A stretch of DNA of 64,000 nucleotides, taken from Candidatus Margulisiibacteriota bacterium. GTDB lineage: Bacteria > Margulisbacteria > WOR-1 > O2-12-FULL-45-9. Position numbers and translations under genes: made by a program. Positions within the stretch are counted from its first letter, which is position 1. The number at the start of each line of letters is the position of its first letter. Below, piece by piece: positions 10,679-28,378 of this stretch. The notes under the pieces were generated by a model, which was not told where the DNA came from, did no database searches, and saw nothing but the letters and a program-made list of their open reading frames with translations. Location of the stretch: contig JAYEOW010000040.1 in assembly GCA_034723395.1 (NCBI GenBank), positions 8,424-72,423 of the forward strand. The letters run 5' to 3'.

Positions 10679-10805
10679 TAAAGATAGTTATCGAAGGATC
10701 AGGATGCTGGAAAGAATATTAATAAATGAGAATTCAGATGAAGTTAAGAGACTTTTAGCGATGGTTGGGTTGATGCAGTTTGCTTTAAGGAAGAACGAAT
10801 TATAG
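10656..10805 (+). CDS. Small hypothetical protein (49 aa)
   Basis: ATG with GAGGA SD; MKKCYQYNKDSYRRIRMLE...RKNEL; fills the gap to the convergent gene. Confidence 0.4.
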   Translation: MKKCYQYNKDSYRRIRMLERILINENSDEVKRLLAMVGLMQFALRKNEL

Positions 10806-12146
10806 CTTTATCTTCTCCCCATGTACGATCTTGTTAATCACAAGGCCGGAGAGAAGCTTGGGATAGAAATAAGTCGACTTATGGGGCATTTTTTCGAGCT
10901 TGCTGGCGATCGAGGTGATCTCTTCGAGCTTGGTCGGATTTAGCAAAAAGGCGACCTGATAATCGTGATTATCAACCCGATCGATTGCCTCTTCGAGTGC
11001 TTTAACATATGAGACCTTATCTTCGGTTTCGTTAGCAATTCCAAGGATACGATCAAATACCGCATAGTGAAGAACCGTTACATCGAGGTTTTTCCATGCT
11101 TTCGGCTTTTCCTCCTCGACCATCTCTTCTACAACGTATTCATCTTTTAAGGTCAACAGGTAATATTTGTTATTCCCGAGATACATGCCATAAGCGTGTT
11201 GATCGAGACCTTTCTTTGTTAGATCTTTTAATAGTTTCTTCTGCACCCTTTTTGCAGATGTTTTGGTCGCCTTGTATAATTTCACGTCAAAGAAGCGTTC
11301 GAGCTCTTTTTCAAAACGGTTCGGATCAAAATAGGGTAGATTGTACAGCACCCGATGGATTGGGAGCACGGCTAAACCTTTGTCCTCGATAGGGGTAAAA
11401 TACATCAATATGTGATTATAAGCTTCTTCTTCGGAGAATTTGGTGTTTTTTGTCTTTAGTTCATTCTTAAAACGGAGGGCTGCTTCATAGCGATGGTGGC
11501 CGTCGGCGATAAAGACAGTCTTGTCGCGCATTTCTTTAATGATCTTGGTGATAGCGGGTTTCTTGTCTATTTTCCAGAGGCGGTGTTTTACTTTATCTTT
11601 ATCTTTATCTGTTACATCAATCAGCGGTTTTCTTCGCATGTATTTCTTGAAAATCTTTAAAAGTTTACTTTTTGGATCGCTATAGACCGAGAAGATCGAC
11701 TCAAGATTTGAGGAGGTTGTCCGCATCAGCTGGAGCCGGTCGAGCTTTGCCCGGGAATAAGTCTCTTCATGAGGAAATACCTTGCCGCGTCCCATATCTT
11801 CGAGCCTTAAGAGGGCGAAAAATCCGAGCCGGGTAAACTTTTTACCTTCTAGGCTAAAGCGCTGTTCGTAAATATAAAAAGAGGGTTTTTCATCCTTTAT
11901 CAGGATGCGGTGGCGGAGCCATCCTTCAAGAAAAGCGGCCGAGCGGATATATTTGTTATTATATTCCCCATCACTGGAAAATTCTTTGCCCAGGATAAGC
12001 CGGATGAAATTGAAATCGTGCAGATTATAAAAATCCTCCTGCATTTTATCATCGATAACATCATAGGGTGGGGTAAAAAGATTGTCGAGCTTTTTAAATT
12101 TACCTTTATTATAAAGAATTCCTTCGAAAGGAAATAATTTAACCAT
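10800..12146 (-). CDS. DUF1015 family protein
   Basis: PPYDVI, PHEET, IADGHHRYE, KSTYFYPKL.SGL. Confidence 0.9.
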   Translation of the reverse strand: MVKLFPFEGILYNKGKFKKLDNLFTPPYDVIDDKMQEDFYNLHDFNFIRLILGKEFSSDGEYNNKYIRSAAFLEGWLRHRILIKDEKPSFYIYEQRFSLEGKKFTRLGFFALLRLEDMGRGKVFPHEETYSRAKLDRLQLMRTTSSNLESIFSVYSDPKSKLLKIFKKYMRRKPLIDVTDKDKDKVKHRLWKIDKKPAITKIIKEMRDKTVFIADGHHRYEAALRFKNELKTKNTKFSEEEAYNHILMYFTPIEDKGLAVLPIHRVLYNLPYFDPNRFEKELERFFDVKLYKATKTSAKRVQKKLLKDLTKKGLDQHAYGMYLGNNKYYLLTLKDEYVVEEMVEEEKPKAWKNLDVTVLHYAVFDRILGIANETEDKVSYVKALEEAIDRVDNHDYQVAFLLNPTKLEEITSIASKLEKMPHKSTYFYPKLLSGLVINKIVHGEKIKL

Positions 12147-12203
12147 GGCGATCGCATTATAACATCACTTTAATTTCGCGTCAAATTTGCTATAATACGG
12201 CAG

Positions 12204-14513
12204 ATGAGAACCCGAAAACCGGTAATTTTTGTTTTAATAAGCTTATTTTTCATCCTTCCCGGCTTTGCCAAGTTCATCGATGTGCCGAAAGGGCACAAGA
12301 GCGCTCCCGCCATCCAGAAGCTTCTCGATTTCGGCATAATAAAACTTTCTCAGGAGGGGAAATTTAAGGGAAAAACCCCTGTGACCATGTATCAAATGAC
12401 GGTAATAATGGACGAGATCCTGGACAAATCGGGAAAGAGAAAGGCCCTGGAGGCGGTGCCGATCGAAGATTTTTACGTCAATGTACCAGAAAAACATTAT
12501 GCTTATAGGGCGGTCAGGGATATGGTTAAAATGGGACTTTTTGTTGTTCCTGATTCAAAGGTCTTTCCCGGGGAGATCAAAGTTAACCGCGCAACATTTT
12601 ATTCCTACATGGCGGCCTTTTTAGAGAGGTTGGAGGGGAAGGCCTTGGCAAAGGCGGCTGCGAATAAAGGATATTCGGACCTTTCAAAGGGTCACGCGGC
12701 CTATCCTTATGTGCAAAAACTGATTGGTGCCGGTCTTCTTGGCGGGAAGGGAAAATTCAACGAGAATATGCTGGTTAGCCGTTATGAGATGGCCTCCTTT
12801 ATCGATAAGATCGTTGATTATTACTTAAAACTTAAGGTCGCGGGGAGGGTGGGGGACCAAAGCGGATATATTGATATTCTAAAAAGCAATTACGCCTTCA
12901 ATTCAATTAATGAGCTGATTGAGATCGGAGTATTGAAGCCGAGGGATGGGGAGAAGTTTTTTGGAAAGACCTTGATCAACCGTTATTTTCTGGCGGACCT
13001 GACCTTAAGGATCCTCGAAAAAGTTGTCTTGCAGGAAGATGTTAAGCCTGCCCCCTTTGCCAGGTCTTATAAGGATGTCCCGACGAGCCATTTTGCGTAT
13101 AAGTCGATCCAAAAGCTGATAACTTTAGGAGTCATCCCGCCGGGGAACCGGGCTGAGCTTTTCTACGGAGAGAGGAAGATCAGCCGTTATCAGATGGCAT
13201 ATTTTGCTTTTTCGGCGGTCGAGTATGTGCTGCGCGATACGCTTATCTTTCAACCGGCGCACTCTTCGCTCGGTTATTACGATGTCCCGACCGATTATTT
13301 TGTCTTTGACACGATACAAAAACTGGTATGGCTGGATGTTTTGGAAGGCGGGTTGAAAAATAAGTATAACGGCAACGAATATATCGACCGGTATGAGCTC
13401 TGCTCTTTCTCGGTGGAGCTGATTGAGGCGGTGTTTGAAAAGATCGAGGAGCTGAAAGAGGAGGTTTATAAAAAACCAGAGGGGTTTGGTTTTGAGACCT
13501 ATCTGAACACACAGCTTAATTTTTCCCAGGTTTCAGGCGTGACGGAAGCAAGCGCGTATCAGCAGGCCGATATCATGGTCGACCGGGAGATAAGGAAGGA
13601 CCTTTCGGCTTTTATTTCTTTCTCATCACGCTATAATTTCGGGGATACGACGACTTTAAGCTCCCCTTTCCTGGAACAGGCTTATCTTTTGTTTGAGGAG
13701 GGGCCTTTTGTTGCCCAGGTTGGCCGCGCCGATTATTATCAGGGGTATACCCCGTTTGGGAACAGTATTTATGTAGACACAAATTCGATCGACCAGGTCC
13801 TGGCAAATTATGACCATCATCTGTTCAACCTTAATGCGATCGCCGGTAAGTTTGTTTATTTTGGAGATATAAGCCTGGATTCTAATTTTGGCACAATAGC
13901 TTTTTCTCCCAAACTTCCGCCAACGCTAAGCTGGCTGGAGCTTTCGTTGGGGACGAGTATTGTTACCGATCTTCCTGATCCGACCTTTAGTTATACGCTG
14001 CCGACCAGGGTGGTGCAGGGCTACGGAGGGCTGAGGATAAACCTGTTAAATGTTTTTGAATTTACCGCGGAAACCGCTAACCTGACCTTTAGCGATCCTT
14101 CTGTTTTTTCGATAATCGGGACATCTGCCAATAAAGATACAACAGCGACCCAATATTCACTTTCATATTACTCGGAAGATTTTGGTTATGTGGTATCGCT
14201 GGGCTATCAGGCGATCGGGGACGATTATTTCCTGAGCGTTTTCAACGACCCGACCTCGATCCCGGGGACCGCCCGGAATACCGAAAGCTGGCTGTTCAGG
14301 ACCAGGCATTATCCTTCATCTGCCCAAATGATCGGGGCGGATCTCTCTTATGTCTCAACCGACGGTTATAATAATAAGACAGGATTGTCGGGTTACTATA
14401 ACTTTGAAGTGCTCGAAGATGCTTATCTGAATTTCGAGCTGAGCAAGATCATGGATAATCTCTCTGCGCAGGATGAAATTAGGGCTTCCTGCTCATTTTC
14501 GCTTTCGTTCTAG
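12204..14513 (+). CDS. Secreted protein with six SLH repeats and a probable C-terminal outer-membrane beta-barrel
   Basis: Signal peptide; six (F/Y)xD(V/L/I)..(H/N/Y)....I..L...G-type repeats; aromatic beta-rich C-terminus ending SFSLSF. Confidence 0.8.
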   Translation: MRTRKPVIFVLISLFFILPGFAKFIDVPKGHKSAPAIQKLLDFGIIKLSQEGKFKGKTPVTMYQMTVIMDEILDKSGKRKALEAVPIEDFYVNVPEKHYAYRAVRDMVKMGLFVVPDSKVFPGEIKVNRATFYSYMAAFLERLEGKALAKAAANKGYSDLSKGHAAYPYVQKLIGAGLLGGKGKFNENMLVSRYEMASFIDKIVDYYLKLKVAGRVGDQSGYIDILKSNYAFNSINELIEIGVLKPRDGEKFFGKTLINRYFLADLTLRILEKVVLQEDVKPAPFARSYKDVPTSHFAYKSIQKLITLGVIPPGNRAELFYGERKISRYQMAYFAFSAVEYVLRDTLIFQPAHSSLGYYDVPTDYFVFDTIQKLVWLDVLEGGLKNKYNGNEYIDRYELCSFSVELIEAVFEKIEELKEEVYKKPEGFGFETYLNTQLNFSQVSGVTEASAYQQADIMVDREIRKDLSAFISFSSRYNFGDTTTLSSPFLEQAYLLFEEGPFVAQVGRADYYQGYTPFGNSIYVDTNSIDQVLANYDHHLFNLNAIAGKFVYFGDISLDSNFGTIAFSPKLPPTLSWLELSLGTSIVTDLPDPTFSYTLPTRVVQGYGGLRINLLNVFEFTAETANLTFSDPSVFSIIGTSANKDTTATQYSLSYYSEDFGYVVSLGYQAIGDDYFLSVFNDPTSIPGTARNTESWLFRTRHYPSSAQMIGADLSYVSTDGYNNKTGLSGYYNFEVLEDAYLNFELSKIMDNLSAQDEIRASCSFSLSF

Positions 14514-14873
14514 GGCGCGGTTGACTAGATCGTATATAACTTCCATCATAAAAGGTTTGCTGACGTATTCCATGGCTCCTAATTCGACTGCCCGGACCTT
14601 GCTTTTTTCCGAAGCGTAGCCGGTAACGATGCAGCATTCGGTCGAAGGGCTTAATTCCTTTATCTTTGCCAGAATATCCAATCCGATATCGCGGCCGTTA
14701 AAGCGGAGATCGATAAAGGCGATATCAAATTTATCTTTCTGGACGGCAGAGGCGGCGTCTTCGAGGTTCATAGCCGTCTTGACCGCATACTCCTTTACCT
14801 CAAGGATCATTTTTAGCGATTCGAGGACCGCTAATTCGTCGTCAACTACCAGGCAATTTGTTTTATCGGCCAT
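14493..14873 (-). CDS. Single-domain response regulator (CheY-like)
   Basis: VVDDE, FIDL, VTGY, YVSKPF. Confidence 0.92.
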   Translation of the reverse strand: MADKTNCLVVDDELAVLESLKMILEVKEYAVKTAMNLEDAASAVQKDKFDIAFIDLRFNGRDIGLDILAKIKELSPSTECCIVTGYASEKSKVRAVELGAMEYVSKPFMMEVIYDLVNRALERKRK

Positions 14874-14883
14874 TGGTCTCTCC

Positions 14884-15096
14884 TTATTTTTTCGATAACA
14901 GAAGCTCGAACACGTTTATCTGTTCGATGACCATGCGGCCTCCGTCAGGGCCGGGTTGGGTCAGTTCTATTTTAAACTGCCAGAGCCAAATTACAACCCC
15001 CACCAGTATAGCAAAAACGGCCAGGGTTGCGATCTCGACGATTCGGGCCTGCCTGGCCATCTCCTGCTGGGTTATCGCTTTAAATATATTTTTCAT
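14884..15096 (-). CDS. Small single-pass membrane protein
   Basis: One hydrophobic helix; start overlaps the ABC gene stop (ATGA). Confidence 0.7.
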   Translation of the reverse strand: MKNIFKAITQQEMARQARIVEIATLAVFAILVGVVIWLWQFKIELTQPGPDGGRMVIEQINVFELLLSKK

Positions 15097-16832
15097 TCTT
15101 CACCTGCATGCGCTTGATAGAATTTGTAGAATTCGCCCTTCTTTTCGAGCAGCTTTTCGAACGTCCCTTGTTCCGTTATCCGGTTCTTGTGGATCACGTA
15201 GATCTTATCCGCGTTCTTAAGGGTGGGGATGCGATGAGAGATTATGATCACCGTCTTATCTTTGCAGCGCCTTTTTAGATTTTCATAAACCTTGGCTTCG
15301 ACCAAGCTGTCGAGGGCGGAGGTCGCTTCGTCCAATACCAGGATCTTTACGTCGCGGTAGAGGGCGCGGGCGATTGCCAGCCTTTGCTCCTGCCCGCCCG
15401 AGAGGCCGATCCCCCCTTCGCCGATCCGGGTATCGTAGCCATTGGCGCAGCCCATGATAAAATCGTGGATCTCCGCGTCCTTGGCGGCCTGGACCATGTT
15501 CTTTTCGTTTATCTCTTTGCATCCGTACTGGAGGTTCTCGCGGATCGTCCCCGAAAAAATTATCACATCCTGGGAGACGATCGAGATATAGGCGCGGAGG
15601 GTCATCAGCGAGACCTGTTTGAGGTCGTATTTATCGACATAGATGTGGCCTTCGCTCGGATCTAAAAAGCGGAGGATCAGATCGAGGATCGTGCTTTTTC
15701 CGGCGCCGCTCGCTCCGGCTACCGCGGTGATCTGCCCCGGATTCGCGGTGAGGCTGATGTTTTTCAGAATATACTCTTTCGTATCCGCGTAGTGGAAGCT
15801 GACTTTATCGAATTTGATCTTCCCTTCGATATAATAAAGGACAAAGGTTTTAACGTCCTGGTAAGCTTCGGGCTCAACGTCCATGATCTCGTTGACGCGG
15901 GTGATCGAGACAAAACTGCGCGCCAGTGATTTATATACTTCGCCGAAATCCATAAAGGGCTGGTGGATCTGCCCCAGGTAGACCAGTATCGCCATGATCT
16001 CTCCAATCGTGATATGGCCGGTGATCACGCGGTAGCCGGCATACCAGGCGATAAAGCTGGTCCAGAGGGTAATCATAGTCGAGTCGAGAAAGCTGTTGAA
16101 CAGGCCGGTAAACAGATTTTCCCGCACCAGCATAAAGACCGATCTTAGTTTATCGATCAGCCTCCCGGTTTCATAAACTTCCTGGTTAAAGGATTTGATC
16201 GTCTTAATGTTGCCCATCTTTTCCTGATAAAAGGAATAGATCTCCGATTCTCTTTTTTGGGATTTTTCCTGGATATCCTCAAAGCGTTCGGCAAAGATCC
16301 TGGTCTCGATAAAATAGAGCGGGATGCCGAGCAGGGCGAGGAGGGTGAGATTCCAGTCGATCATGATGCAGATGATAAATAAGGCGATCAGCTGCAGGGC
16401 GGTCTTGACCAGGACCGGGATCGTTTCGGCCACTGTATCCACGATTACGTCAATGTCGTCAGTTACCCTTACCATCATATCGCCCACCTGTTTTTCCTTA
16501 TGCACGCTCATCGGCAGGCGGAGGACGCGGGTAAAGAATTTCTGGCGCAGGTCGATCGAGAGGGTCTGGTGGATAAAGGTGTCGAGGTAGCTGGTTATGC
16601 CGGAGAAAAAGGTATCAAAGAGAAAGATCACGATGCCAAAGAGGACCAAGAAGGTCAATAAGTAGAGATCCCGGTTTGGATAAGCGTAATCGATCAAAAT
16701 TTTTGTGATCAGCGGGGCGGCCATGCTAAAGATGACCGAGAGGCCGACCGCCAGCAGGGACAGTGAGCTTTTATCCCAATAGGGGAGGAGGAGCTTAAAA
16801 TAGCTTCCGAAGATCTTCAACCTTTCATGCAT
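15093..16832 (-). CDS. ABC exporter, fused TMD-NBD (no peptidase domain)
   Basis: N-terminal TM domain, GASGAGKS, LSGGQ, VLDEATSALD, SHR. Confidence 0.95.
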   Translation of the reverse strand: MHERLKIFGSYFKLLLPYWDKSSLSLLAVGLSVIFSMAAPLITKILIDYAYPNRDLYLLTFLVLFGIVIFLFDTFFSGITSYLDTFIHQTLSIDLRQKFFTRVLRLPMSVHKEKQVGDMMVRVTDDIDVIVDTVAETIPVLVKTALQLIALFIICIMIDWNLTLLALLGIPLYFIETRIFAERFEDIQEKSQKRESEIYSFYQEKMGNIKTIKSFNQEVYETGRLIDKLRSVFMLVRENLFTGLFNSFLDSTMITLWTSFIAWYAGYRVITGHITIGEIMAILVYLGQIHQPFMDFGEVYKSLARSFVSITRVNEIMDVEPEAYQDVKTFVLYYIEGKIKFDKVSFHYADTKEYILKNISLTANPGQITAVAGASGAGKSTILDLILRFLDPSEGHIYVDKYDLKQVSLMTLRAYISIVSQDVIIFSGTIRENLQYGCKEINEKNMVQAAKDAEIHDFIMGCANGYDTRIGEGGIGLSGGQEQRLAIARALYRDVKILVLDEATSALDSLVEAKVYENLKRRCKDKTVIIISHRIPTLKNADKIYVIHKNRITEQGTFEKLLEKKGEFYKFYQAHAGEE

Positions 16833-16909
16833 TAATTATAGTATATAACTTGAAGAAGAATCGGGCAAGCTGACGGATTTATGATATAATACTTGTGGAG
16901 GTGTTTATT

Positions 16910-17077
16910 ATGGCAATGAGTAAAAGACACAGCAAAAGCAGCAGGCTTTCAGGTATTAAAAAGACACGAGCAAAACCAAAGATACAAATGGATGATGATT
17001 TGACCCGAACATTTATAAAGAAAACTGAAGGGAAACTACAAAAAAGAGTGCCGGGAACAAAATGGAAAGTGGCTTGA
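16910..17077 (+). CDS. 55-aa Lys/Arg-rich peptide A (candidate radical-SAM substrate)
   Basis: Extended -10 TGATATAAT (16882-16890), SD GGAGGT, ATG 16910; directly upstream of a radical SAM gene. Confidence 0.7.
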   Translation: MAMSKRHSKSSRLSGIKKTRAKPKIQMDDDLTRTFIKKTEGKLQKRVPGTKWKVA

Positions 17078-17094
17078 TAATATAGCTGTATTTT

Positions 17095-18745
17095 ATGCAA
17101 AAAAAAATGTCCCGCACCTAAGCAGTACCACCGTGCTCTGGCTAAAGAAATTATTAGTAATTTATCCTCCCTTATTGAGCTTGATTATTTATCTAAGCGC
17201 GATTCTTCCCCCGATTCATGTGAGATAATTTATCAGCCGGAATTTCTTTATCGAACCGCCGACCCAAGGATTGATTTTATTAAACGCCTTTTAGAAATCA
17301 CTTTCTCTGATTCCGATCTCCCGACTAATCCGTCATCTTTTAGTTTGAAGCGCCTTAAGGACTGGATGGTCGGAATTACAGCTGACGATCTTATTGAACA
17401 GATGAGCTGGGCGTGCAAAGCGGATTGTGTTTTTTGTTATCAGAAAGGGAGCCCCCCTTTTATGCGCGTGAAGATGCGCATGTCTAAGGAAGAGATCAAG
17501 ACACGGCTTAAGTATTATAATGGGAAAAAGGGGCTTACATGGTGTACTCCTTATGAAAATGACGAAGTGTTGAACAATCCATTCATTGAGAATGTGCTGA
17601 AGCAGATCCGGCGAAAAGACAAAGAGATGCTGCGGATCATTACTAATGGGGTCGCTCTTACGCCACAAATGATCGCCAAACTAAAAAAAGCTATGCCGCT
17701 ATTCATTGACATATCGCTAAACAGCACAAATCCTGAGATACGCAGAAAATTGATGCGTGACTCATCCCCGGAAATCGCGATCCAGAGCATCCCCTTGCTT
17801 AGAAAGCACAAAATTCCTTTTGTAGTTAAGATCGTTGCTTGGCCGGGAGTCCCCTTTTCAGATATTGAAAAAACGATCAAGTATGCAGATAAATACGATG
17901 CTTTCCGCGTAGAAATTGGAAGCCCGGGAGTAACGCGTTACCTTCCGGATGTTTCTTTTGATTATAAGCGGCACTGGAAGAGGGTAGTTAAGTTTGTGAA
18001 TTCAATAAAGCGGAAATATAACATACCTATTGTGTCTGATATTTATATTGATAAGAATAATTATAGACGGTGGGATATTCCAGTTGTACAGGGAACCATA
18101 AAGCATTCACCGGCCTATACTCATGGAGTTAAGCCCGGAGACGTTATTGAAGAAGTGAATGGACAGCTTGTGGATTCCCTTTTCGGGGTTTTTAGGGAAT
18201 TGTTGAAGCGGCGGAAGGCGCGGTTAAAGATTCGCCGCGGCGGTAAAACTTTATTTTTTAACCTAAAAGAGAAAAAAAAGTATCCGTATCTATTTGACGG
18301 TCAAAGGATGCGGGGCCCTTTCGGGATAAGATTTAAATTAGCCAAAGAACTCATGCTTTCGGATGACGACATCATTGATATTAAGCGATTTGCTAACATT
18401 CATCGGGCGAAAAGAGTATTAGTTTTAACCTCGGCCAGGGCCTATTTCTTGATCAAATATAAGATGGAGAAGTTGAAACTTTTTAAAAGTAGTAATGCCC
18501 GGATAAAACTGGCGATCGCTGAAAATAAAATGTACGGCGGTAACACCAAGTGCGCGAATTTACTGGTGGTAGATGATTATATTCATGCCGTGAAAAAGCA
18601 CAAGAAGGAATTTAAGCCGGACCTGGTGGTTATTCCTTCGAGCCCCTTTAATGCCTGGGAGCGGGATGTGGTGGGGCGGGTGAACCTCGATATCGAGAGA
18701 GAGACAAAGGTCCCCGTAGAGTTTGTTTACAACGAAATACTCTAA
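17095..18745 (+). CDS. Radical SAM protein with PDZ-like and C-terminal DUF512-like domains; 5' end irregular
   Basis: CKADCVFC, TNG, GVKPGDVIEEVNG (PDZ-like), N..YGGN....LLVVDD (DUF512-like). Frame open from 17081; ATG 17095 is offset by one base at an A9 run; first in-frame canonical start is TTG 17345. Confidence 0.85.
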
Positions 18746-18982
18746 TTACTTATAAAGCTTATTGATCTTCACGCTATCCAAAAAATGAAACCCATCCACC
18801 TTCACGTCTTCTCCCTTATAAGTCAGTGCCACAATATCCATGGTTTCTTTTAGCAGGTCTTTGACGAAATCTTTAAAAGGATCCTTGCTGCGCCGTTTCT
18901 TTTTGGGGATATCCAGCTTCCAGCGTAGAATAAAGTCGCCGTTTTCGTCAAGGTTAGGATTCGTTTGTTTTTTATTTTTCAT
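18746..18982 (-). CDS. 78-aa protein, possibly the isolated N-terminal piece of a paralogous radical SAM gene
   Basis: SD AAGGAG and ATG 18982; DPFKDFVKDLLKET resembles DPRIDFIKRLLEIT in the N-terminal extension of 17095-18745. Confidence 0.55.
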   Translation of the reverse strand: MKNKKQTNPNLDENGDFILRWKLDIPKKKRRSKDPFKDFVKDLLKETMDIVALTYKGEDVKVDGFHFLDSVKINKLYK

Positions 18983-18995
18983 GATGTTTCTCCTT

Positions 18996-19577
18996 TTACG
19001 ATAAAGGTTCAACCCGACTATTATAAACAAATTCAACCGGAATGCCTATTTCGCGTTCGATGTCCAGATTATTTCTGCCGATTATATCTCTGCCCCACAA
19101 GTTAAAAGGAGAGGAGGGAAGAATGATCAGGTCTGGATTGAACTTTTTGGCAGCTTGTTTTATATTCCGAATGAAATCTTCAACGACCAGAAGGTCCCCC
19201 GAGTTGATAGTCCCTCCGAAAAAATAGTTCTTTGCCGAGATCACACGCAGGTTAAGCTGGTATTTTTTTAAAGTGTGTTTTATTAAGGGAGCCACTCTCG
19301 GCGCGGCGTCAATATTATTAATGAGAAAATCTCTAATTGTTTTTAATTCACTGTTTTTGTATTTCCTATTTATCTTTTTTGTTGATTGTAAATAATATAT
19401 CCTTTTTATATATTTTGAAATATTTTCTGGTCTTAGGACATAATAAAAAAACTCAAGGCCAAGGTTTTCTTGAACTACGTCAACTTTATGCTTGTGTAAA
19501 TATGCATAAAGCTTTGCAGTTCCCAATGGTAGATTAAAAGATAAACTACCCGGTGGGGTAAGAAGTAAAATATCCAT
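18996..19577 (-). pseudogene. Chimeric ORF: start of a B12-binding radical SAM protein joined to a DUF512-like C-terminus
   Basis: MDILLLTPP....LPLG.A.L.AYL start; C-terminal about 100 aa clearly paralogous to the C-terminus of 17095-18745 (PDL...PSSPFN.W.RD..GR.NLDIERE...PVEFVYN); no CxxxCxxC. Confidence 0.7.
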
Positions 19578-19710
19578 TATATTACCAGTAATAATATCAT
19601 AGGCGGGTTTGTTTATGAAATTGCGGAAAAGTTATGTGATGAATAATGAAGCAGAATATGCGGGTCGTGGAGCCCTCCCCAACATCAAAAAGCCCCTGAA
19701 AGTGTGCTTT

Positions 19711-20715
19711 TTATTCAATAAAACACAAAGCGGAGCGATTTAAATTATTTGGAATTTTATATGGATCCTTAAAAAGGACGCACTGGGCGTTATCTGGAGC
19801 AAAAAAGGTGTTGTGTAGTTCATAGGTCCTTTGCTTGCAGCCGCCAAGACATTTTTTATTGGCTTTACAGTAGTGACATTCACTAATATTATTTGAGGTT
19901 GATCTTCTTATTTCTTTCATGACCGGATGGTTTTTAAATATTTTTGTAAAATTATCTTTTCTTATATTTCCCATAACCTTATTTCTCATCGGCATGCAGG
20001 GGACGATATCGCCGTTAAACAATATCGCGATAAATTCATAGCCAACGCCGCATGCGGTTCCCCTTGCTCTAGATGTTATATCTAATCCTTCCGGTTCGGA
20101 TATTTTGTGCATACAATCTTTATAATCTTTTAGCTTGGGGTAGAGTTTTTTCCCCGCTTTTCCGCTGGGATTTATCAGGCTTATCCCGGCGGTAATATTG
20201 AAATGCTGGCAAAAATCGACAATATCCTGGATTTCTTTAACGTTATTTTTCATAACAATTGTTCTGACCACAACGTTAAAGCCTTGTTTTTTACATAGTA
20301 AAATCGCGTCTATTGCTTTTTTAAACGAACCCTTTTTGCCTCTGATAGCATCATGTGTTTTAGCATTAGCTCCGTCGAGGCTAATTTGAATGGTATCGAT
20401 GTTAATTTTTTTAAATCTTTCAATTGCCCGCTTATCAACTAGTGTGCCATTGGTCAAAAGATGGATTTGCAGCCCCTTCTGTGAAGCGTAGGCGGCAATT
20501 TTGTAAAAACGGGGATGTAAAAGAGGCTCTCCGCCGGATAAAATCACTTTTTTGGCCTTGTTCTTTGCTGTGGTGTCGAGAATATTAAATATTTCTTTTA
20601 AGGATAATTCTTTTGAAAATAAACTGCCATCCGCAAAGCAATGTATGCAATTTAAATTGCACCGTTTAGTTATTTCTAAATATAGCGAATCTAAATGCAA
20701 AAGATTATTGCTCAA
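19711..20715 (-). CDS. Radical SAM/SPASM domain protein
   Basis: CNLNCIHC, SGGEPLL, QISLDG; SPASM cysteines CGVG...GDIVPC...CHYC.....C.GGC...C. Confidence 0.93.
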   Translation of the reverse strand: MSNNLLHLDSLYLEITKRCNLNCIHCFADGSLFSKELSLKEIFNILDTTAKNKAKKVILSGGEPLLHPRFYKIAAYASQKGLQIHLLTNGTLVDKRAIERFKKINIDTIQISLDGANAKTHDAIRGKKGSFKKAIDAILLCKKQGFNVVVRTIVMKNNVKEIQDIVDFCQHFNITAGISLINPSGKAGKKLYPKLKDYKDCMHKISEPEGLDITSRARGTACGVGYEFIAILFNGDIVPCMPMRNKVMGNIRKDNFTKIFKNHPVMKEIRRSTSNNISECHYCKANKKCLGGCKQRTYELHNTFFAPDNAQCVLFKDPYKIPNNLNRSALCFIE

Positions 20716-20743
20716 GAGATTAGGTCTTTTTAGCTGGTCAATC

Positions 20744-20911
20744 CTAGTCGGCGATCATCCCAGGGAATATTTTCTTTCTTGTTCTCATTCCAGGAGAGGC
20801 CTTTAATTTTTTTATCTCTTTGAGAATTTTGGTTGTGCTTGAGGATACTTCGGTCCGGACCTCTTTTTTGATGAGTTTCTTTAAGTCTGATAATTTTAGG
20901 GTTTCTTTCAT
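20744..20911 (-). CDS. 55-aa Lys-rich peptide B (candidate SPASM substrate)
   Basis: Hand translation MKETLKLSDLKKLIKKEVRTEVSSSTTKILKEIKKLKASPGMRTRKKIFPGMIAD; SD AAGGGGG; TTGCTT-17-TATACT promoter; not in the ORF track. Confidence 0.7.
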   Translation of the reverse strand: MKETLKLSDLKKLIKKEVRTEVSSSTTKILKEIKKLKASPGMRTRKKIFPGMIAD

Positions 20912-21008
20912 GCTTAATAACCCCCTTTTTTTGTAGTATACATCAACCTTTCTTCCGAAGCAATACGTCTTTTTATTTTGTAGGATGTTTTATGATAACA
21001 TAAAAAAT

Positions 21009-21137
21009 GTGACAGCAATAAACAACCCCCAACAAAAACTCTGTTCCGACATCAAAAAGTTCCTGGATGTCTACAAGGTCCTTTCCGCCGACGGCAAAGC
21101 CCAGTTCGAAGCCCAGATGGCGGGAGAGGTTTATTAA
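21009..21137 (+). repeat. Copy 1: truncated 5' half of the 24120-24338 gene (42-aa ORF)
   Basis: GTG...NNPQQKLCSDIKKFLDVYKVLSADGKAQFEAQMAGEVY*. Confidence 0.9.
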
Positions 21138-21212
21138 CTTGACATTTTTGATGGCTTTTGTTAATGTACATCTGTCAAACAGGACAAAATTGTCTTATTT
21201 GGAGGATGATTT

Positions 21213-22013
21213 ATGCTTAAAGATGAGTTAACCGCTAAAGCGCATGAGGAGGGCCTGCCGCTAAAAATCCTTGAAAAAGAGGCTTTGCAAATTTACATTT
21301 TAAGCGAGTTGTTCGCTCTGCCGGAATCGACCCGGCTGACTTTCCAGGGCGGGACCTGCCTGCGCCTGGTCTATAACGGGGCGCGTTACTCAGAAGACCT
21401 GGATTTTGTAACCTCTGCTGACAACAATAATATCGATCAGATCATCAATAATTTGTCCAAAGCGCTTGTCCGGCTGGAGCCGCTCTTCGGCGGGGAAATT
21501 ATTACAAAAAAGCAAAAGGTATCTCCCACTTTTTGCCGCTTCAGAATTCATAACCGGAAAGAAAATATTCACGAATCTTTTTTTGTCAGCCTGGAATTTG
21601 GCCGGTATCCGGCTTATACCTTAAATGTCGTTCCCTTGCGTCCGCAAAAAAAGCTTCCGGGATTGCCGCTGACCCTGGTCCGAGCGGAAAAGCCCGAAGA
21701 GATCCTGGCCGACAAATTGTGCGCTATTGCCGGCCGGCCCTTTTGCAAAGGGCGCGATTATTTTGATCTTTGGCTGTTAAAGCAGCAGGGGATTACGCTT
21801 GACACAAACTTGCTGGGGAAAAAGCTTAAAGATTATTCTATCCCCGCGGATAACCTGGCTCGCGGACTTAACCTTGCTTCAGCCAAAAGCATTAAAAATG
21901 AGATGGAAAGATTTTTGCCGTTAAAATACCGGCGCCAGTTCGAAAACGACGGCTATGCCGGCCTGCTGCAACAAGCCCGGTCAATCATTGAAGAGGGGCT
22001 GCAAGCGCTATGA
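21213..22013 (+). CDS. abiEii: AbiEii-family nucleotidyltransferase toxin (type IV TA)
   Basis: FQGGTCLRLVY...RYSEDLDF, EILADKL.A, KGRDYFDLW. Confidence 0.92.
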   Translation: MLKDELTAKAHEEGLPLKILEKEALQIYILSELFALPESTRLTFQGGTCLRLVYNGARYSEDLDFVTSADNNNIDQIINNLSKALVRLEPLFGGEIITKKQKVSPTFCRFRIHNRKENIHESFFVSLEFGRYPAYTLNVVPLRPQKKLPGLPLTLVRAEKPEEILADKLCAIAGRPFCKGRDYFDLWLLKQQGITLDTNLLGKKLKDYSIPADNLARGLNLASAKSIKNEMERFLPLKYRRQFENDGYAGLLQQARSIIEEGLQAL

Positions 22014-22603
22014 AAAAATATTTTACCTTCTCCTCCTGGCTGACGCTCCTGCAAAAACTGGGCAGGGAAAATCAAAAGATCCTCTCCCCCCGGACCCTGC
22101 AAAGGGCCAGCGGATTGGGCAGCCAGGCGATCTCAAAAGCCATTCAGCGCCTGGTCCGGCGCGGGGACCTGATCAAACTTTATAAAGGGGCCTACGCCAA
22201 TAAATATTCTCCGCCTTCGCTTGAAGAAGTGGCCATGTTTTACGGCAAGCCCTGTTATATTTCTTTTGAGAGCGCGCTGGAAGATCGGGGCATTATCTCG
22301 CAGGCGCCGCAGGTGCTTACCTGCGCGGCCACGCGCAAGCTAAAAAAATTAAAGACGCCGCTGGGTGAGATCGTATTCCATAGGATCCACCCGCGCTTAT
22401 TTAGTAGTTTCGAAAATGATAAGGGGATTCTCCGCGCCACCGCCGAGAAGGCTTTTCTGGATTATTTATATATCAATCTCAAAAATGAAAAACAGATCCC
22501 TGCGCTGGACGAGTTTGACATGGGGCAATTAGATAACAAGAAGACTAAAAAGCTGGCAAAGATCTTTCCCCAAAGCGTCAGGCGCCGCCTACTTTTGGTC
22601 TAA
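22010..22603 (+). CDS. AbiEi-like antitoxin / transcriptional regulator
   Basis: N-terminal HTH-like region, L.KG.Y, YISFESAL...GII.Q, ATAEKAFLDYLY; ATGA-coupled to the toxin. Confidence 0.85.
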   Translation: MKKYFTFSSWLTLLQKLGRENQKILSPRTLQRASGLGSQAISKAIQRLVRRGDLIKLYKGAYANKYSPPSLEEVAMFYGKPCYISFESALEDRGIISQAPQVLTCAATRKLKKLKTPLGEIVFHRIHPRLFSSFENDKGILRATAEKAFLDYLYINLKNEKQIPALDEFDMGQLDNKKTKKLAKIFPQSVRRRLLLV

Positions 22604-22631
22604 CGGCTCATTTTATGCTAAAATTCAACCG

Positions 22632-22793
22632 ATGACTGAGCAAAACCCGCAAGAAAAACTTCTAAACGATGTAAAACACTTCCTCGAGGTCTACAAAGTC
22701 CTTTCCCCCGATGGCAAAGCCCAATTCGAAGGCCAAATGGCCGGGTCGGTTTATGCTATTAAAATGTTCATTGACAATGAAGACTATATATGA
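22632..22793 (+). repeat. Copy 2: truncated 5' half of the 24120-24338 gene (53-aa ORF; homology ends near 22750)
   Basis: MTEQNPQEKLLNDVKHFLEVYKVLSPDGKAQFEGQMAGSVY then an unrelated tail. Confidence 0.9.
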
Positions 22794-22827
22794 TAAGTTT
22801 TCATTAGCAGTGAATGGAGGTGGATTT

Positions 22828-24096
22828 ATGGATAGAGCATTATTAAAAGAGATAGTTTTAGAGCAACGGGAAGTTATAAAAAATAAGGATCTGGGGATAG
22901 AAAGGGAAAAGCTTGATTTAATTGAAGGATCTATAAAGCTTCCACACGCTATCGTTATTTCCGGGATCAGGCGCGTGGGGAAGTCAACCCTGCTTGCCCA
23001 AATTATGAGTAAATTCTATAAATATGATGCTTATTATCTTAACTTTGAGGATGAGCGTTTAATGGACTTTAAGGTTTCGGATTTTAATACCCTTTATGAG
23101 ATATTTGTGGAGCTTTTTGGGGAAAAACAGGTTTTTTTCTTTGATGAAATTCAAAATGTGAAGGAGTGGGAGGCGTTTGTCCGGCGTATGTATGACCGGA
23201 AATTTAAGTTTTTTATTACCGGCTCAAATGCCTCGCTTTTAAGTAAAGAACTGGGGACTAAATTGACGGGAAGATTTGTGCCGGTCGAGCTTTTTCCCTT
23301 TTCGTTCAGGGAATATATGAGATTTAAAAAATATTCTTTACCTGATAAGGCTCTCATGCTTACTAAAGAAAGAGGAAAGATAAAACGCTTTTTTAATGGA
23401 TACTTAAAAGAGGGGGGGATGCCGGAATATCTAAAATATAAGGACCTGGATATTTTAAGGAGAATTTATGATGATATATTATATCGTGATGTTGTTGCCA
23501 GATATAGGATTAAGGAGATAAAAAATCTCAGGGAAATGTCCCTTTATTTTTTGAGTAATCTTTCTGCTTTGTTTTCTTATAATAAACTTAAACAGTATCT
23601 TAATTTGGGGAGCATAAATACAGTAAAGAGTTTTGCTGAGTATCTTCAAAATACCTATATTCTTTTTGTGATAAATATTTTTTCCTTTTCTTTAAAACAA
23701 CAGTTTATTGCGCCAAAGAAAATATATTGTGTGGATAATGCCCTGGCGAACGCAATTGCCTTTAAATTTTCGGAAAATAGGGGTAAGTTTTTGGAAAATG
23801 TTGTATTTGTAGAGCTTAAGAGAAGGGGCTCTGAAATTTATTATCATAAAACTGCTAAAGGACTTGAGGTTGATTTTCTGGTAAAAAAGGGAAGAAAGGT
23901 TGAGAAGCTAATTCAGGTAACCCTGGGGATGGGGAAAACCGGCGTTAAGGAGCGGGAATTAAACGCGCTTCTTTCGGCGTTGGAAGAACTTGATGTGAAA
24001 GAGGGGATGATTTTGACGGAAGAAGAGGAAAAAGAAATTAAATTAGGCGGAAAGAAGATAACTGTTAAGCCGGTATATAAATGGCTGTTAGAGTAA
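22828..24096 (+). CDS. AAA+ ATPase (AAA_14) with DUF4143/nuclease-like C-terminus
   Basis: SD GGAGGT and ATG 22828; GIRRVGKST, FFDEIQ, TGSNASLL, GGMPE, KKIY.VD, EN.V, EVDF, IQV; AT-rich. Confidence 0.9.
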   Translation: MDRALLKEIVLEQREVIKNKDLGIEREKLDLIEGSIKLPHAIVISGIRRVGKSTLLAQIMSKFYKYDAYYLNFEDERLMDFKVSDFNTLYEIFVELFGEKQVFFFDEIQNVKEWEAFVRRMYDRKFKFFITGSNASLLSKELGTKLTGRFVPVELFPFSFREYMRFKKYSLPDKALMLTKERGKIKRFFNGYLKEGGMPEYLKYKDLDILRRIYDDILYRDVVARYRIKEIKNLREMSLYFLSNLSALFSYNKLKQYLNLGSINTVKSFAEYLQNTYILFVINIFSFSLKQQFIAPKKIYCVDNALANAIAFKFSENRGKFLENVVFVELKRRGSEIYYHKTAKGLEVDFLVKKGRKVEKLIQVTLGMGKTGVKERELNALLSALEELDVKEGMILTEEEEKEIKLGGKKITVKPVYKWLLE

Positions 24097-24119
24097 GTAT
24101 TATAGGGGAAGATAGTATA

Positions 24120-24338
24120 ATGAATAACCCACAACAAAGACTTTTAAACGATGTAAAAAAGTTCTTAGAGGTCTACAAAGTTCTCTCTCCGGATGGCAAA
24201 GCGCAATTCGAAGGCCAGATGGCGGGATCAATAAAGGACCAGGACGATAAGACCAGGAAGTTATATCATGCTCTTCTGCAAGCGGCCAAAGACGGCAAAG
24301 ATGTAGAAGCTGCTATCCAGGAGATGGGGAAGGGCTAA
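24120..24338 (+). CDS. 72-aa hypothetical protein, the complete copy (copy 3) of the repeated gene
   Basis: MNNPQQRLLNDVKKFLEVYKVLSPDGKAQFEGQMAGSIKDQDDKTRKLYHALLQAAKDG...; converges on parB. Confidence 0.85.
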   Translation: MNNPQQRLLNDVKKFLEVYKVLSPDGKAQFEGQMAGSIKDQDDKTRKLYHALLQAAKDGKDVEAAIQEMGKG

Positions 24339-25225
24339 ACCCGGGATAACGTCTTTTTCCCGCGGAAGATAATTTCTAGTACCCGTTCGAGGTCCTCTTT
24401 GCTGAAGTAATTGATCTCGATCCGCCCTTTTTGCGGAGTCCCCAGTATTTTTACTTTTGTTCCGAGAAATGTTGTTAATCTTTCAACCAGGGCGTTTAAT
24501 TCCGCATTTTTTGTAAAAGCGCGTTTGCGTCCGCCTTTCCTGGCTTTTTGTTTTTCACTTTTTCCAGAAACTAAAATTTCCACGTCGCGAACATTTAATT
24601 TGCTGGAGATGATCTGTTTCCAGGCTTCAAGCTGTTTTAGCTGGTCAGAAATCGCCAAAAGCGCCCGCGCGTGCCCAACACTAATTTCTTCTTTGCGGAG
24701 ACTTTGTTTGATCTTATCCGGTAAAGTAAGGACGCGAAGCATATTGGTAACGGTGGACCTGTTCTTCCCCACCTTTTTAGCGACTTGTTCCTGAGTGATC
24801 TTAAATTCTTTGATCAGGAGGGCGTAACCCTCGGCTTCATCCATCGGATTGAGGTCTTCGCGCTGGAGATTTTCGATCAAGGCGATCTCGAGCGATTGCT
24901 CGTCGGTAAAATCCTTTATGATTGACGGGACCAGGGTGAGCCCGGCAAGTTTAGCCGCTCTCCACCTGCGTTCACCGGCGACCAGTTCGTATCTCCCTGC
25001 CCGCATCCGGGTCAGGATCGGTTCGATCACTCCCTGCTCTTTGATCGAATCCGAAAGTTCTTTTAATGCATCCTTGGGAAATTCGGTCCTTGGCTGACGC
25101 GGATTTGGATATATTTTACCGATATCGATATTTACGATCGTCCTCCCGCCGGCAAAGATCGCCTTCTTTGGGATCAGCGCGCTCAATCCTTTACCCAAAC
25201 CTCTTTTTTTAGAATTGTCCATCAT
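24335..25225 (-). CDS. parB: Chromosome partitioning protein ParB
   Basis: GLGKGLSALI, NPRQPR, AGERRWRA, ENLQREDLNP, HTH. Confidence 0.97.
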   Translation of the reverse strand: MMDNSKKRGLGKGLSALIPKKAIFAGGRTIVNIDIGKIYPNPRQPRTEFPKDALKELSDSIKEQGVIEPILTRMRAGRYELVAGERRWRAAKLAGLTLVPSIIKDFTDEQSLEIALIENLQREDLNPMDEAEGYALLIKEFKITQEQVAKKVGKNRSTVTNMLRVLTLPDKIKQSLRKEEISVGHARALLAISDQLKQLEAWKQIISSKLNVRDVEILVSGKSEKQKARKGGRKRAFTKNAELNALVERLTTFLGTKVKILGTPQKGRIEINYFSKEDLERVLEIIFRGKKTLSRV

Positions 25226-25976
25226 CTAATACCTCCCGACAAAGATTTTCGTAGGCCTGCGCCCCTTTTGATCCCGGATCATAAAAGATAATTGGCTGGC
25301 CAAAACTGGGCGCCTCGGCCAAGCGGATATTTCTCGGAATAACTGATTTAAAAACCTTGCTGCCAAAATATTTACGGGTCTCTTCGGCAACTTGGGCAGA
25401 AAGTAAGGTTCTCGGATCGTACATGGTAAGAACAATCCCGCGGATCTTTAGCCCGGGATTCAACCCTTCCCGGACCAATTCTAAGGTATGGGTTAACTGG
25501 CTAATTCCCTCGAGTGCGTAGTATTCGCACTGGATCGGGATAATAACTTCATCTGCCGCAGTCAGGGAATTTACGGTCAGAAGCGATAGCGAAGGAGGGC
25601 AATCGATAATAACTATATCATAATCATCTTTAACTGATGCTAAAGCATCTTTTAAGCGGGTCTCTCGCGGCTCCATGTTTATAAGTTCAACCTCTGCTCC
25701 GGCGAGTTGCGGAGTAGAAGGGAGAGAATCTAAATTTGCGATCGGGCTTTTGATAATTACATCCTTGGCGGGAACGCTGCTGATCAATACATCATACAGG
25801 CACTGTTTAATGGTTGAACGGTCGATGCCTATGCCTACTGTGGCATTACTTTGCGGATCAAAATCGACCAGTAAGATCTTCTTGCCGAAAGTTGCTAAGT
25901 AAGATGCCAGATTTACGGTGGTGGTGGTCTTTCCGACTCCGCCTTTTTGGTTTACGATCGCGTAGGAGATGCCCAT
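25209..25976 (-). CDS. parA: ParA/Soj ATPase
   Basis: NQKGGVGKTTT, DPQSN, IDCPPSL, QCEYYALEG, EAPSFG. Confidence 0.97.
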   Translation of the reverse strand: MGISYAIVNQKGGVGKTTTTVNLASYLATFGKKILLVDFDPQSNATVGIGIDRSTIKQCLYDVLISSVPAKDVIIKSPIANLDSLPSTPQLAGAEVELINMEPRETRLKDALASVKDDYDIVIIDCPPSLSLLTVNSLTAADEVIIPIQCEYYALEGISQLTHTLELVREGLNPGLKIRGIVLTMYDPRTLLSAQVAEETRKYFGSKVFKSVIPRNIRLAEAPSFGQPIIFYDPGSKGAQAYENLCREVLDDGQF

Positions 25977-25991
25977 TGCCCGCTTATTATA

Positions 25992-26630
25992 TCATAGCGG
26001 TCTTTTTTTGGCCATTCCGGGGTGGCGGGGGTATTTTTCGGGAGTAGGGGATATTTTTTCGATAATAATTAGTGAGCGGATGATCTCTGAATCTGGTAGT
26101 TTTACTTTTTTCATCTCTTTTATTTTTCCACCAAGAATTTTGATTGCGTTCTCCGCTGATTGAATCTCGTCTTCGATCTTTTCTTCCTTGTAAGCGACAA
26201 AAATCCCTCCAACTTTTACAAAGGGGAGGCATAGCTCGGAAAGGACGTTTAATTTCGCGACTGCGCGGGAGAGGGAGATATCATATTGCTCCCGTTTATC
26301 TTTAACAATTTCCTCAGCTCTTCCCCAGATGATTTCCACATCTTTTAAGTTTAATGTTGAAACAACATGCCTTAGAAATTCAACTTTCTTGCGGGTCGCT
26401 TCAACTAAGGCCAACTGAATTTGAGGGAATGTTATTTTTAAAGGGATGCCTGGGAAACCAGCCCCGGCGCCAATATCGATGATAGATTGGTCTGTGAGGT
26501 TGACTACTTGAGAAATAGAGAGTGAATCTTCAAAATGTTTTAGCTTTATTTCGTCCGGTTTGGTGATGGAGGTAAGATTAAACTTCCTGTTCCACTTCAG
26601 AAGCTCTTTGAGATAGACTTCAAACATCAA
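25992..26630 (-). CDS. rsmG: 16S rRNA m7G methyltransferase
   Basis: NLTSI, HFEDS, DIGAGAGFPG, SRAVA; synteny with parAB. Confidence 0.96.
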   Translation of the reverse strand: MMFEVYLKELLKWNRKFNLTSITKPDEIKLKHFEDSLSISQVVNLTDQSIIDIGAGAGFPGIPLKITFPQIQLALVEATRKKVEFLRHVVSTLNLKDVEIIWGRAEEIVKDKREQYDISLSRAVAKLNVLSELCLPFVKVGGIFVAYKEEKIEDEIQSAENAIKILGGKIKEMKKVKLPDSEIIRSLIIIEKISPTPEKYPRHPGMAKKRPL

Positions 26631-28378
26631 AAGGCCTGGCCGATAGAAAAGTGCATTATTCCTTCGCCAAAGGCTTTGCCGCTAGGCACGCCCCAGTCCA
26701 AGCGGATCGGGCCGAGGGGGGTATTAATGCGGACCCCGGGTCCCCAGCCGGAGATAAAATCTGCCGGAACGGGGGCTCCCTCATTCCATGCATTTCCCCA
26801 ATCATAGAAAAATACTCCTTGGAAGAGTTCTGAGAAATTAAGCCGGTATTCGGCGTTAAAGATCAGTTTCCTGGTCCCGCGCCTCGCCTCAGAAGGATAA
26901 TATCCTCGTACTGTATTTGCTCCCCCTGCCCAATACTCTTCGCCGATCGGCACATCGCCAAAGCCGATGCCGGAGCCAATGTGTGTCGCAAAGACCTGAT
27001 TGGACTGCACGGGATAGTAGTGGTTGACATCGCCGCCGATCTTGAAGAAGGTGGTGGTCCCGCTGGAGTGTTTCCATCCCTGTTTTAGGGAGAGGGAATA
27101 GAACCGGCCCTTGGTCGGATTGAGCCAGAAATCGCGGGTATCGTAAGACAGGGTGAGCCCGACAGTGTCGGACTGGTACGATTCAAATGTGGAGCTTCCG
27201 TGGGGGGAGACGACTTCGCTCCCCAGAGACCAGGCGATCTTGTAATCATCATACAATGGTTTTCCAACCGACATATCCCAACCGTTGTAGCGAGCGTCTT
27301 GCTCGGTTAGATAAATATCCCTTCCAATTGTTAACCACCTTCTAAAGGTAAAAGAGGTGTGGTCGCCAAATCTTTCCGGCATGAGCCATGGATTGGTATA
27401 TTTAAACTGGTAAGTCGATAGTTCCTGCCCGGATTGCCCGCGGATCATTATCCCCTGGCCGCTCCCCATTAGGTTGTTTAGTGAGAGGTCGATAAAGCCA
27501 AACCATCCCTCGGCCTCGCCGTAACCGCCGCCAAAATTTATGGTGCTGGTGCGGGTCTCTTTAATATCTAATACAATAACTACTTTATCTGTCGTGCTCC
27601 CGGCTTCAAATTTTGGGTTTACCTCGGAAAAGAATCCGAGATTAAATACACGGCGGAGATCGTTTTTAAATTTTGTTTCGTTAAAAACCGTCCCCGGCTG
27701 GGTCTTTAGTTCACGGATAATTACGTAATCCTTGGTATTATCATTTCCCTCCAGCCCGATCGATTCGACAATTCCTTCGATGATTTTGATGGTAAGTGTA
27801 TTATTGATCTCATCAGTTTCCACATCGATCACGCGGGCCAGAATGTAGCCGTTATCCTTGTAGCGTGAGTTTATCTTGGCGATATCCTCCTGGAGGGTCT
27901 TAAAATTCAGGGTTTTGCCCGTTCTGCTTTTTATAAGCGAGAGAAGATCTTGGGAGGTATAAACCGTGTTTCCATCGAAAACGATCTTTTCGATCTTTGG
28001 GTTTTCCTCAACGATAAAAGTCACAACCGTTCCGCCCGCTTCCGATTCGAAGGTGGCGGTTACATCTTTGAAAAATCCCAGGCCATAAACCGCTTTAATA
28101 TCGCTTTGGACCTTTTTTTCGTAAAGGCTGTCACCGATCCGGCTGAAGATAACGTCCATTATTTCCTGGTCCGGCACGTTCTGGTTCCCTTTAATATTTA
28201 CCCCGGTAATGATGGGGGAAACCTCGACCGTATCGTCTTGCGCGAATGCTGAAAAACTAAAAAGAAGGAAAAACAATGCTAAGAAGATTGGAAGGAACCT
28301 GAGACTAAAAGTTTCGGTTCCTTTTCTTTTAAAACCGCGAATTTTATTCGCAGGCTTTAAGGATTTTAATATTTTCAT
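26627..28378 (-). CDS. Omp85 (BamA/TamA) family outer-membrane protein
   Basis: POTRA-like repeats, VRGY motif, TPLGPIRLDW, terminal F. Confidence 0.92.
   Translation of the reverse strand: MKILKSLKPANKIRGFKRKGTETFSLRFLPIFLALFFLLFSFSAFAQDDTVEVSPIITGVNIKGNQNVPDQEIMDVIFSRIGDSLYEKKVQSDIKAVYGLGFFKDVTATFESEAGGTVVTFIVEENPKIEKIVFDGNTVYTSQDLLSLIKSRTGKTLNFKTLQEDIAKINSRYKDNGYILARVIDVETDEINNTLTIKIIEGIVESIGLEGNDNTKDYVIIRELKTQPGTVFNETKFKNDLRRVFNLGFFSEVNPKFEAGSTTDKVVIVLDIKETRTSTINFGGGYGEAEGWFGFIDLSLNNLMGSGQGIMIRGQSGQELSTYQFKYTNPWLMPERFGDHTSFTFRRWLTIGRDIYLTEQDARYNGWDMSVGKPLYDDYKIAWSLGSEVVSPHGSSTFESYQSDTVGLTLSYDTRDFWLNPTKGRFYSLSLKQGWKHSSGTTTFFKIGGDVNHYYPVQSNQVFATHIGSGIGFGDVPIGEEYWAGGANTVRGYYPSEARRGTRKLIFNAEYRLNFSELFQGVFFYDWGNAWNEGAPVPADFISGWGPGVRINTPLGPIRLDWGVPSGKAFGEGIMHFSIGQAF

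Follow-up and report, generated by a model that had tools for sequence, protein, structure and literature searches.

The window analysed here, a 64,000-nt stretch of the genome of an uncultured, Saganbacteria-like member of Candidatus Margulisiibacteriota, contains three direct copies of a 104-nt sequence, starting at 21024, 22644 and 24126, with identities of 76-85% (copy 1 is 77% identical to copies 2 and 3). Each codes for the N-terminal 36-38 residues of a protein of 72 aa, the product of what we call the host gene. Copy 3 (24120-24338, on the + strand, as are all features of the window given here) is the intact gene, convergent with parB and with full-length matches in relatives. The other two are cut-off 5’ parts of the gene: copy 1 (21009-21137) is homologous as far as Val38 and then continues with Tyr and a stop codon, and copy 2 (22632-22793) is homologous as far as 22751, in a 53-aa frame that crosses the junction. 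A Pfam search with the 72-aa protein gave only a weak match to DUF7366, below the cut-off. Copy 1 is preceded by an extended -10-like element (20989-21001) that is probably of the host gene’s promoter type, as the same TG-n-TA(A/T)AAT-type element stands before intact homologues, and the extended -10 element of copy 2 (22612-22624) would be the duplicated start of the target. Such an element also lies a few bases 5’ of the intact gene’s start, which suggests a leaderless transcript. Copy 2 is bracketed by a 17-nt imperfect direct repeat (14/17; 22604-22620 and 22742-22758), and the second junction resembles the host gene’s own extended -10 region (shuffle p=0.007, a comparison chosen post hoc); there is no comparable match at copy 1 (p=0.41). 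Between the three copies, synonymous differences amount to 0.52-0.67 and amino-acid-changing ones to 0.06-0.14. With so few amino-acid changes against so many silent ones, the copies appear to have evolved as working genes rather than having been duplicated and then left to decay.

A single full-length match to the host gene was found in each of 45 of the 64 other genomes of the class; these relatives belong to other genera and carry the source names Margulisbacteria or Saganbacteria. Three matches occur in this genome alone, and no further cut-off copies were found in the 64 class genomes, 15 metagenome loci or two genome loci, nor were cut-off pieces present in viral contigs or in a search of proteins of 22-72 aa. 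The gene is accompanied by parB in 34 of the 45 loci and, in 27 of them, by its usual upstream neighbour, which we take to be DUF1015-like. In the window, about 9 kb (about 10800-21000), including radical-SAM genes, part the host gene from this neighbour; locus L031 has radical-SAM-like genes directly upstream of the gene, and L033 has other genes there. Given this variety of DNA 5’ of the gene, the upstream site resembles a general insertion hotspot.

Between the copies of the host-gene start lie two cargo modules, 1.6 and 1.5 kb long. The left limit in each case lies just 5’ of a conserved -35 box and the cargo ends just beyond the stop codon, after which the host-gene promoter region and 5’ end are repeated, so that one whole gene is left. 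The first module encodes a predicted AbiEii nucleotidyltransferase toxin of a type IV toxin-antitoxin system (21213-22013; PF08843, E=5e-27; PADLOC AbiEii, E=2e-41) and a predicted AbiEi antitoxin (22010-22603; PADLOC AbiEi, E=5e-26; PF13338 below the cut-off), and with this gene pair and a palindrome in the promoter region it has the make-up of an AbiE system, as judged at gene level. Its putative promoter, TTGACA-17-TAATGT with a TG extension, lies at 21139-21167 and is followed by a palindromic operator-like site, GACAAAATTGTC (21183-21194). AbiEi is described as binding inverted repeats in its own promoter (PMC3985639), and the palindrome is likely the site of AbiEi autorepression, a prediction from comparative analysis. 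The second module encodes an AAA_14-DUF4143 ATPase (22828-24096), identified by Pfam and assigned by PADLOC to the candidate system PDC-S01. Its putative promoter (22768-22799), TTGACA-17-TAAGTT with a TG extension, has the same layout as in loci L084-L086, and its TTGACA (from 22771) sits within a 13-nt palindrome (22768-22780) that was seen as a hairpin.

The initial annotation had proposed that each module carries its own promoter, and this appears to be borne out by conservation. Our homologue set (n=24) comprised the AbiE operon in nine other genomes of the class, with toxins 64-79% identical, and 15 ATPase loci, in which start positions were estimated from alignments. A TTGAC box stands upstream of 22 of the 24 homologous cargo loci (14 of the 15 for the ATPase), compared with 15 of 150 control genes. 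In the AbiE homologue loci the positions of the -35 and -10 boxes are kept in 9/9, with the -10 at 16-17 nt from the -35 box, as is the palindrome (9/9), and the conserved part of the homologous modules begins at the -35 box. The conservation of -35 box, -10 and palindrome across these loci supports the reading of self-contained promoters. Each -10 hexamer agrees with TATAAT in 3 of 6 positions only, and owing to these degenerate boxes a consensus promoter scanner flagged neither promoter.

Both modules follow the same seven letters. GGTTTAT stands at 21128-21134 (junction 1) and 22748-22754 (junction 2), directly after codon 38 of the cut-off copies, where the intact gene has AATAAAG (24230-24236); these coordinates, and the TTGACA-17-TAA(T/G)NT arrangement with its TG extension after each 7-mer, are as first annotated. 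TTGACA begins 4 nt after the 7-mer in module 1 and 16 nt after it in module 2. The 7-mer is composite: G-GTT, made up of the last base of codon 37 and a codon for Val, is gene-like, and TAT belongs to the promoter flank. In the 49 intact proteins compared, S, A or E fills position 37 in 46, Val fills position 38 in 9, and position 39 is Lys in 46 and Tyr in none. Since Tyr39 never occurs in the intact proteins, homology stops with codon 38, which makes TAT the first triplet on the cargo side, and the possibility that Val-Tyr here is ordinary gene homology, which had been named as a way in which the motif could lose its meaning, falls away. BLAST carries the repeat between copies 1 and 2 through the 7-mer, for 111 bp; past it, the two cargo flanks share nothing significant (shuffle p=0.27).

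The genome contains 423 GGTTTAT sites (0.25 per kb), and the four gene-side letters of the 7-mer are common to 1.3% of pairs among 18 intact homologues. Its sharing by both junctions is probably more than chance, although the composite make-up leaves the 7-mer less remarkable than it seems at first. The least probable of the readings considered here is indeed coincidence, in which two unrelated insertions with long target duplication ended at the same codon and seven letters matched fortuitously: module left ends are generally AT-rich and close to the -35 box, the motif was chosen post hoc, and GGTTTAT is found upstream of 4 of the 150 control genes, but an end in the same register, among roughly 150-200 allowed positions, combined with a seven-letter match would by our estimate occur well under once in a hundred times.

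It had been claimed that GTTTAT marks a conserved module end or a crossover site, and neither part of the claim holds. In none of the 24 homologous modules do the 130 nt upstream contain GGTTTAT; GTTTAT occurs in one of these loci, at -129, far from the promoter. Neither string is found at either junction of nine other repeat-flanked modules of the genome (described below), so that other junctions without the motif, the second outcome that the initial annotation had named as damaging, are what we see in 24/24 and 9/9 cases. Nor is the 7-mer present in the right ends of the modules, in copy 3 or in any of the 18 intact target loci examined, which represent the empty target; these are the places in which a recombinase core would be expected. 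The inverted arms looked for around a crossover are missing as well, the best match being 7/13 against a background mode of 8, and single-strand folds at the junctions are no better than those of shuffles (z-scores -0.5 to +0.9).

These results bear directly on site-specific accretion, in which a tyrosine or serine recombinase acting in trans would integrate DNA at codon 38 and restore the gene’s 5’ end each time, the modules being decayed cis-mobilizable elements and GGTTTAT an att arm. The same register and the same seven letters in two unrelated cargos speak for such a process, a published case describes integrase-less elements accumulating in tandem at a single site (PMC5704250), and the genome has three tyrosine recombinases and one serine recombinase on other contigs, from where one of them could act in trans. 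However, the 7-mer is missing from the empty target (0/18), and its absence from the right ends, from the homologous and other modules, the lack of arms or of hairpins above the shuffles, and its alteration in a sister strain (see below) all count against an att site. Relatives of the four recombinases were found neither in the window nor in 124 loci, Pfam shows no mobility gene in the inserts, and viral contigs contain no host-gene fragment. We regard this reading as very unlikely and already largely refuted. Two particular systems were also considered and set aside. An integron attC site finds no junction hairpin and no Rfam match in 16000-27000; for a dif module, no XerC/XerD arms were seen at the junction, a weaker result in that the dif pattern used matched nowhere in the genome. 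Joints that skip a module are absent from the contigs of four sequencing runs, contigs being assemblies that drop rare variants.

A sister strain carries a simpler version of the locus. In contigs of run X2 (X2-X4 are one study), the same site reads cut copy, ATPase, intact gene and parB, with a normal promoter and gene start ahead of the left copy; the AbiE module has no cover in the sister-strain contigs at 85% likeness. Over about 1470 nt the strain differs from the window by 92 substitutions and 5 gaps, of which 4 substitutions and 2 deletions fall in the 13 nt of 22746-22758, including 22752 T>C and the loss of 22754. This is far above the module average (p=0.0003) and near the expectation for unconstrained DNA (p 0.015-0.05), so that the junction behaves in the opposite way to a recognition site. 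In the same run the two gene copies merge into one 62-nt contig at double depth, which means that they are identical there at positions where the copies in the window differ, and suggests homogenisation or recombination between copies.

Modules between direct repeats are not peculiar to this locus. Of the homologous cargo loci, 23 could be scored, and 7 of these have direct repeats of 18-101 bp on both sides, compared with 2 of 150 control genes (Fisher p=9e-6); the controls are all drawn from this genome, and the cargo loci, being related, are not independent of one another. In five of the seven the repeat consists of the start or end of an adjacent gene of the host, in one it is a copy of the antitoxin’s 3’ end, and the remaining locus sits between small paralogous reading frames. 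Within the genome itself, a list of 22 repeat-flanked candidates yielded nine outside the window, which were examined together with the two window modules; one overlapping composite row and 10 rows that resembled paralogue pairs, repeat-element pairs or housekeeping genes were dropped. There are thus at least nine other accessory modules between repeats of 26-108 bp (C6, C15, C20, C24, C26, C29, C31, C43 and C53 of G000; loci L099-L106 and L110), seven of them with toxin-antitoxin or defence-type Pfam matches; their cargo consists of two MNT-HEPN-type pairs, two AAA_14-DUF4143 genes, DUF559, HTH-Fic, a SIR2-like gene and two unknowns. At another module of the genome the repeat copies are identical at 42 of 42 positions.

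Stacking is also seen in another genome, G013, where stacked cargo that includes an AAA_14-type ATPase lies among three copies of a 1623-aa gene’s end (L121: 1896-1940, 5689-5717 and 7066-7110). The copy ends lie within 6 nt of each other and their sequence is other than GGTTTAT, so that stacking in the same register does not need this 7-mer. Several further arrangements were noted. In G040, both ends of a single 239-aa gene are duplicated, the 3’ end over 145 bp and the 5’ end over 26 bp, each around a different cargo (L122: 3891-4861 and 5412-6847). In G009, an ATPase lies between copies of the upstream gene’s 3’ end plus the downstream gene’s start (L123: 1342-1465 and 2828-2934), the duplicated gene ends being fused at a short shared word. 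In G010, a 38-bp copy of the antitoxin’s 3’ end stands about 125-160 nt upstream of the AbiE start (L048), as expected after a circular or tandem intermediate.

Taken together, the locus has the properties of insertion with long target duplication: target repeats above 30 bp (104-111 bp), a single-copy empty site in relatives, no mobility gene, an insert below 20 kb, and repeats whose length and sequence vary between sites. We favour, as the more probable reading though by no means a secure one, two stacked cassettes in which GGTTTAT is the far end of the repeat shared by copies 1 and 2, present at both junctions by descent and not read by a recombinase. In this scheme one insertion with long target duplication would have created the junction between cut gene and cargo after codon 38. 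A second cassette may then have been taken up into this structure, the AT-rich TTTAT/TAT ahead of its -35 box probably serving as a short joining homology. Cassettes would pass between lineages by RecA-dependent natural transformation, anchored in the gene start of about 105 nt and in the gene’s 3’ end or parB, and each copy would once have been a working allele in some lineage. Such movement of cassettes between lineages would account for the differences among the copies, which resemble those among alleles from separate lineages; recA, comEC and dprA are all present in the genome.

Several observations sit uneasily with descent. It predicts that copies 1 and 2 should be close, yet they are only 77% identical, and a tree of the 5’ copies over 102 nt leaves their branching unsettled, so that the reading has to invoke allele replacement. 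Between sequences that are 15-23% divergent, recombination is described as inefficient (PMC6382021). Moreover, the sister strain has lost TAT, whereas the more distant copy 1 keeps it, and only two junction lineages are known.

In a rival reading the 7-mer is convergent, a codon for Val followed by AT-rich promoter flank, and two independent illegitimate joins (homology-facilitated illegitimate recombination) took place at T-rich microhomology by the Val38 codon, each donor bringing cargo upstream of an intact gene copy and being anchored in the gene’s 3’ end or parB. This would explain the allele-like divergence in one step, and Val38 is present in 9 of the 49 intact proteins. TATT/TTTAT precedes the AbiE -35 box in the unrelated loci L047 and L049, and the DNA upstream of the host gene varies among relatives (DUF1015-like neighbour in 27/45). 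Against it, two joins would be needed at the same codon and with the same four gene-side letters, which only 1.3% of intact pairs share. In L047 (G057), the best relative of the AbiEii toxin, a 17-nt stretch upstream of the promoter nearly matches codons 31-36 (p=0.001 for this one locus, nine loci tested); but the match weakens in wider alignments (p 0.02-0.12) and falls within the end of an unrelated gene, in a protein that its relatives match up to the final residues, and it is probably a coincidence. We consider independent joins unlikely but still a rival to be taken seriously, and judge descent to be more likely than either site-specific accretion or chance. GGTTTAT is accordingly graded as likely an inherited leftover of an insertion with long target duplication rather than the recognition site of a site-specific enzyme.

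A bolder extension, which we consider improbable, is that Saganbacteria run a dedicated, sequence-relaxed pathway for the capture of defence units that extend from -35 box to stop codon. It would duplicate 26-110 bp of a gene end, would account for at least 11 modules in the 1.7-Mb genome, and would have used codon 38 of the host gene beside parB as a repeated entry point, with GGTTTAT as the footprint of joining.

Insertion with long target duplication has been described for restriction-modification genes (Furuta, Abe and Kobayashi, 2010; PMC2853133, which cites Nobusato et al., 2000). That description reports variable repeats above 30 bp, no mobility gene, frequent placement across a start or stop codon, and mostly competent species. 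The modules described here share the cargo without mobility genes, the variable repeats over 30 bp across a start or stop codon, the target gene left whole and the competence genes of the host. They differ in their cargo, which is AbiE and an AAA_14-DUF4143 ATPase (PDC-S01) rather than the restriction-modification genes of the original survey, in the stacking of two modules on one target with the same end point, and in repeats that are 76-85% identical and differ mostly at silent sites, compared with identity over 62 nt in the sister strain. A search of the literature at the level of listings gave no paper on long target duplication with this cargo or in Saganbacteria, although the supplements of PMC2853133 may hold stacked cases, and direct repeats and microhomology are not mentioned in the accessible part of PMC13617665.

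Other known systems offer partial parallels, as far as the excerpts of the respective papers go. The T6SS immunity arrays of V. cholerae also arise without an integrase, by repeated insertion at one conserved anchor, and retain remnants of earlier residents, but there insertion is anchored in the effector region and displaces immunity genes (PMC5361080, PMC6382021), whereas here the remnant is the 5’ end of a host gene and each cassette has a putative promoter of its own. Tandem accretion of cis-mobilizable elements (PMC5704250) likewise places integrase-less cargo blocks at one gene with copies of the target end between them; unlike that case, we find no conserved core in the target or ends, no arms and no parent element, and the same cargos occur here at unrelated genes with other repeat lengths. 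Finally, module 1 resembles the described AbiE type IV toxin-antitoxin operon (PMC3985639) in its two genes, own promoter and palindrome in the promoter region, and is unlike it in having the toxin gene first and a palindrome whose sequence differs from the S. agalactiae repeats.

In summary, what had looked like the lead to a new site-specific recombination site can be set aside as false. Long target duplication is a class already known, to which toxin-antitoxin (AbiE) and ATPase defence cargo in Saganbacteria would be added. With two stacked modules in the window and a sister strain that carries one, the locus offers a natural series in which the integrase-free insertion and spread of such modules can be studied.
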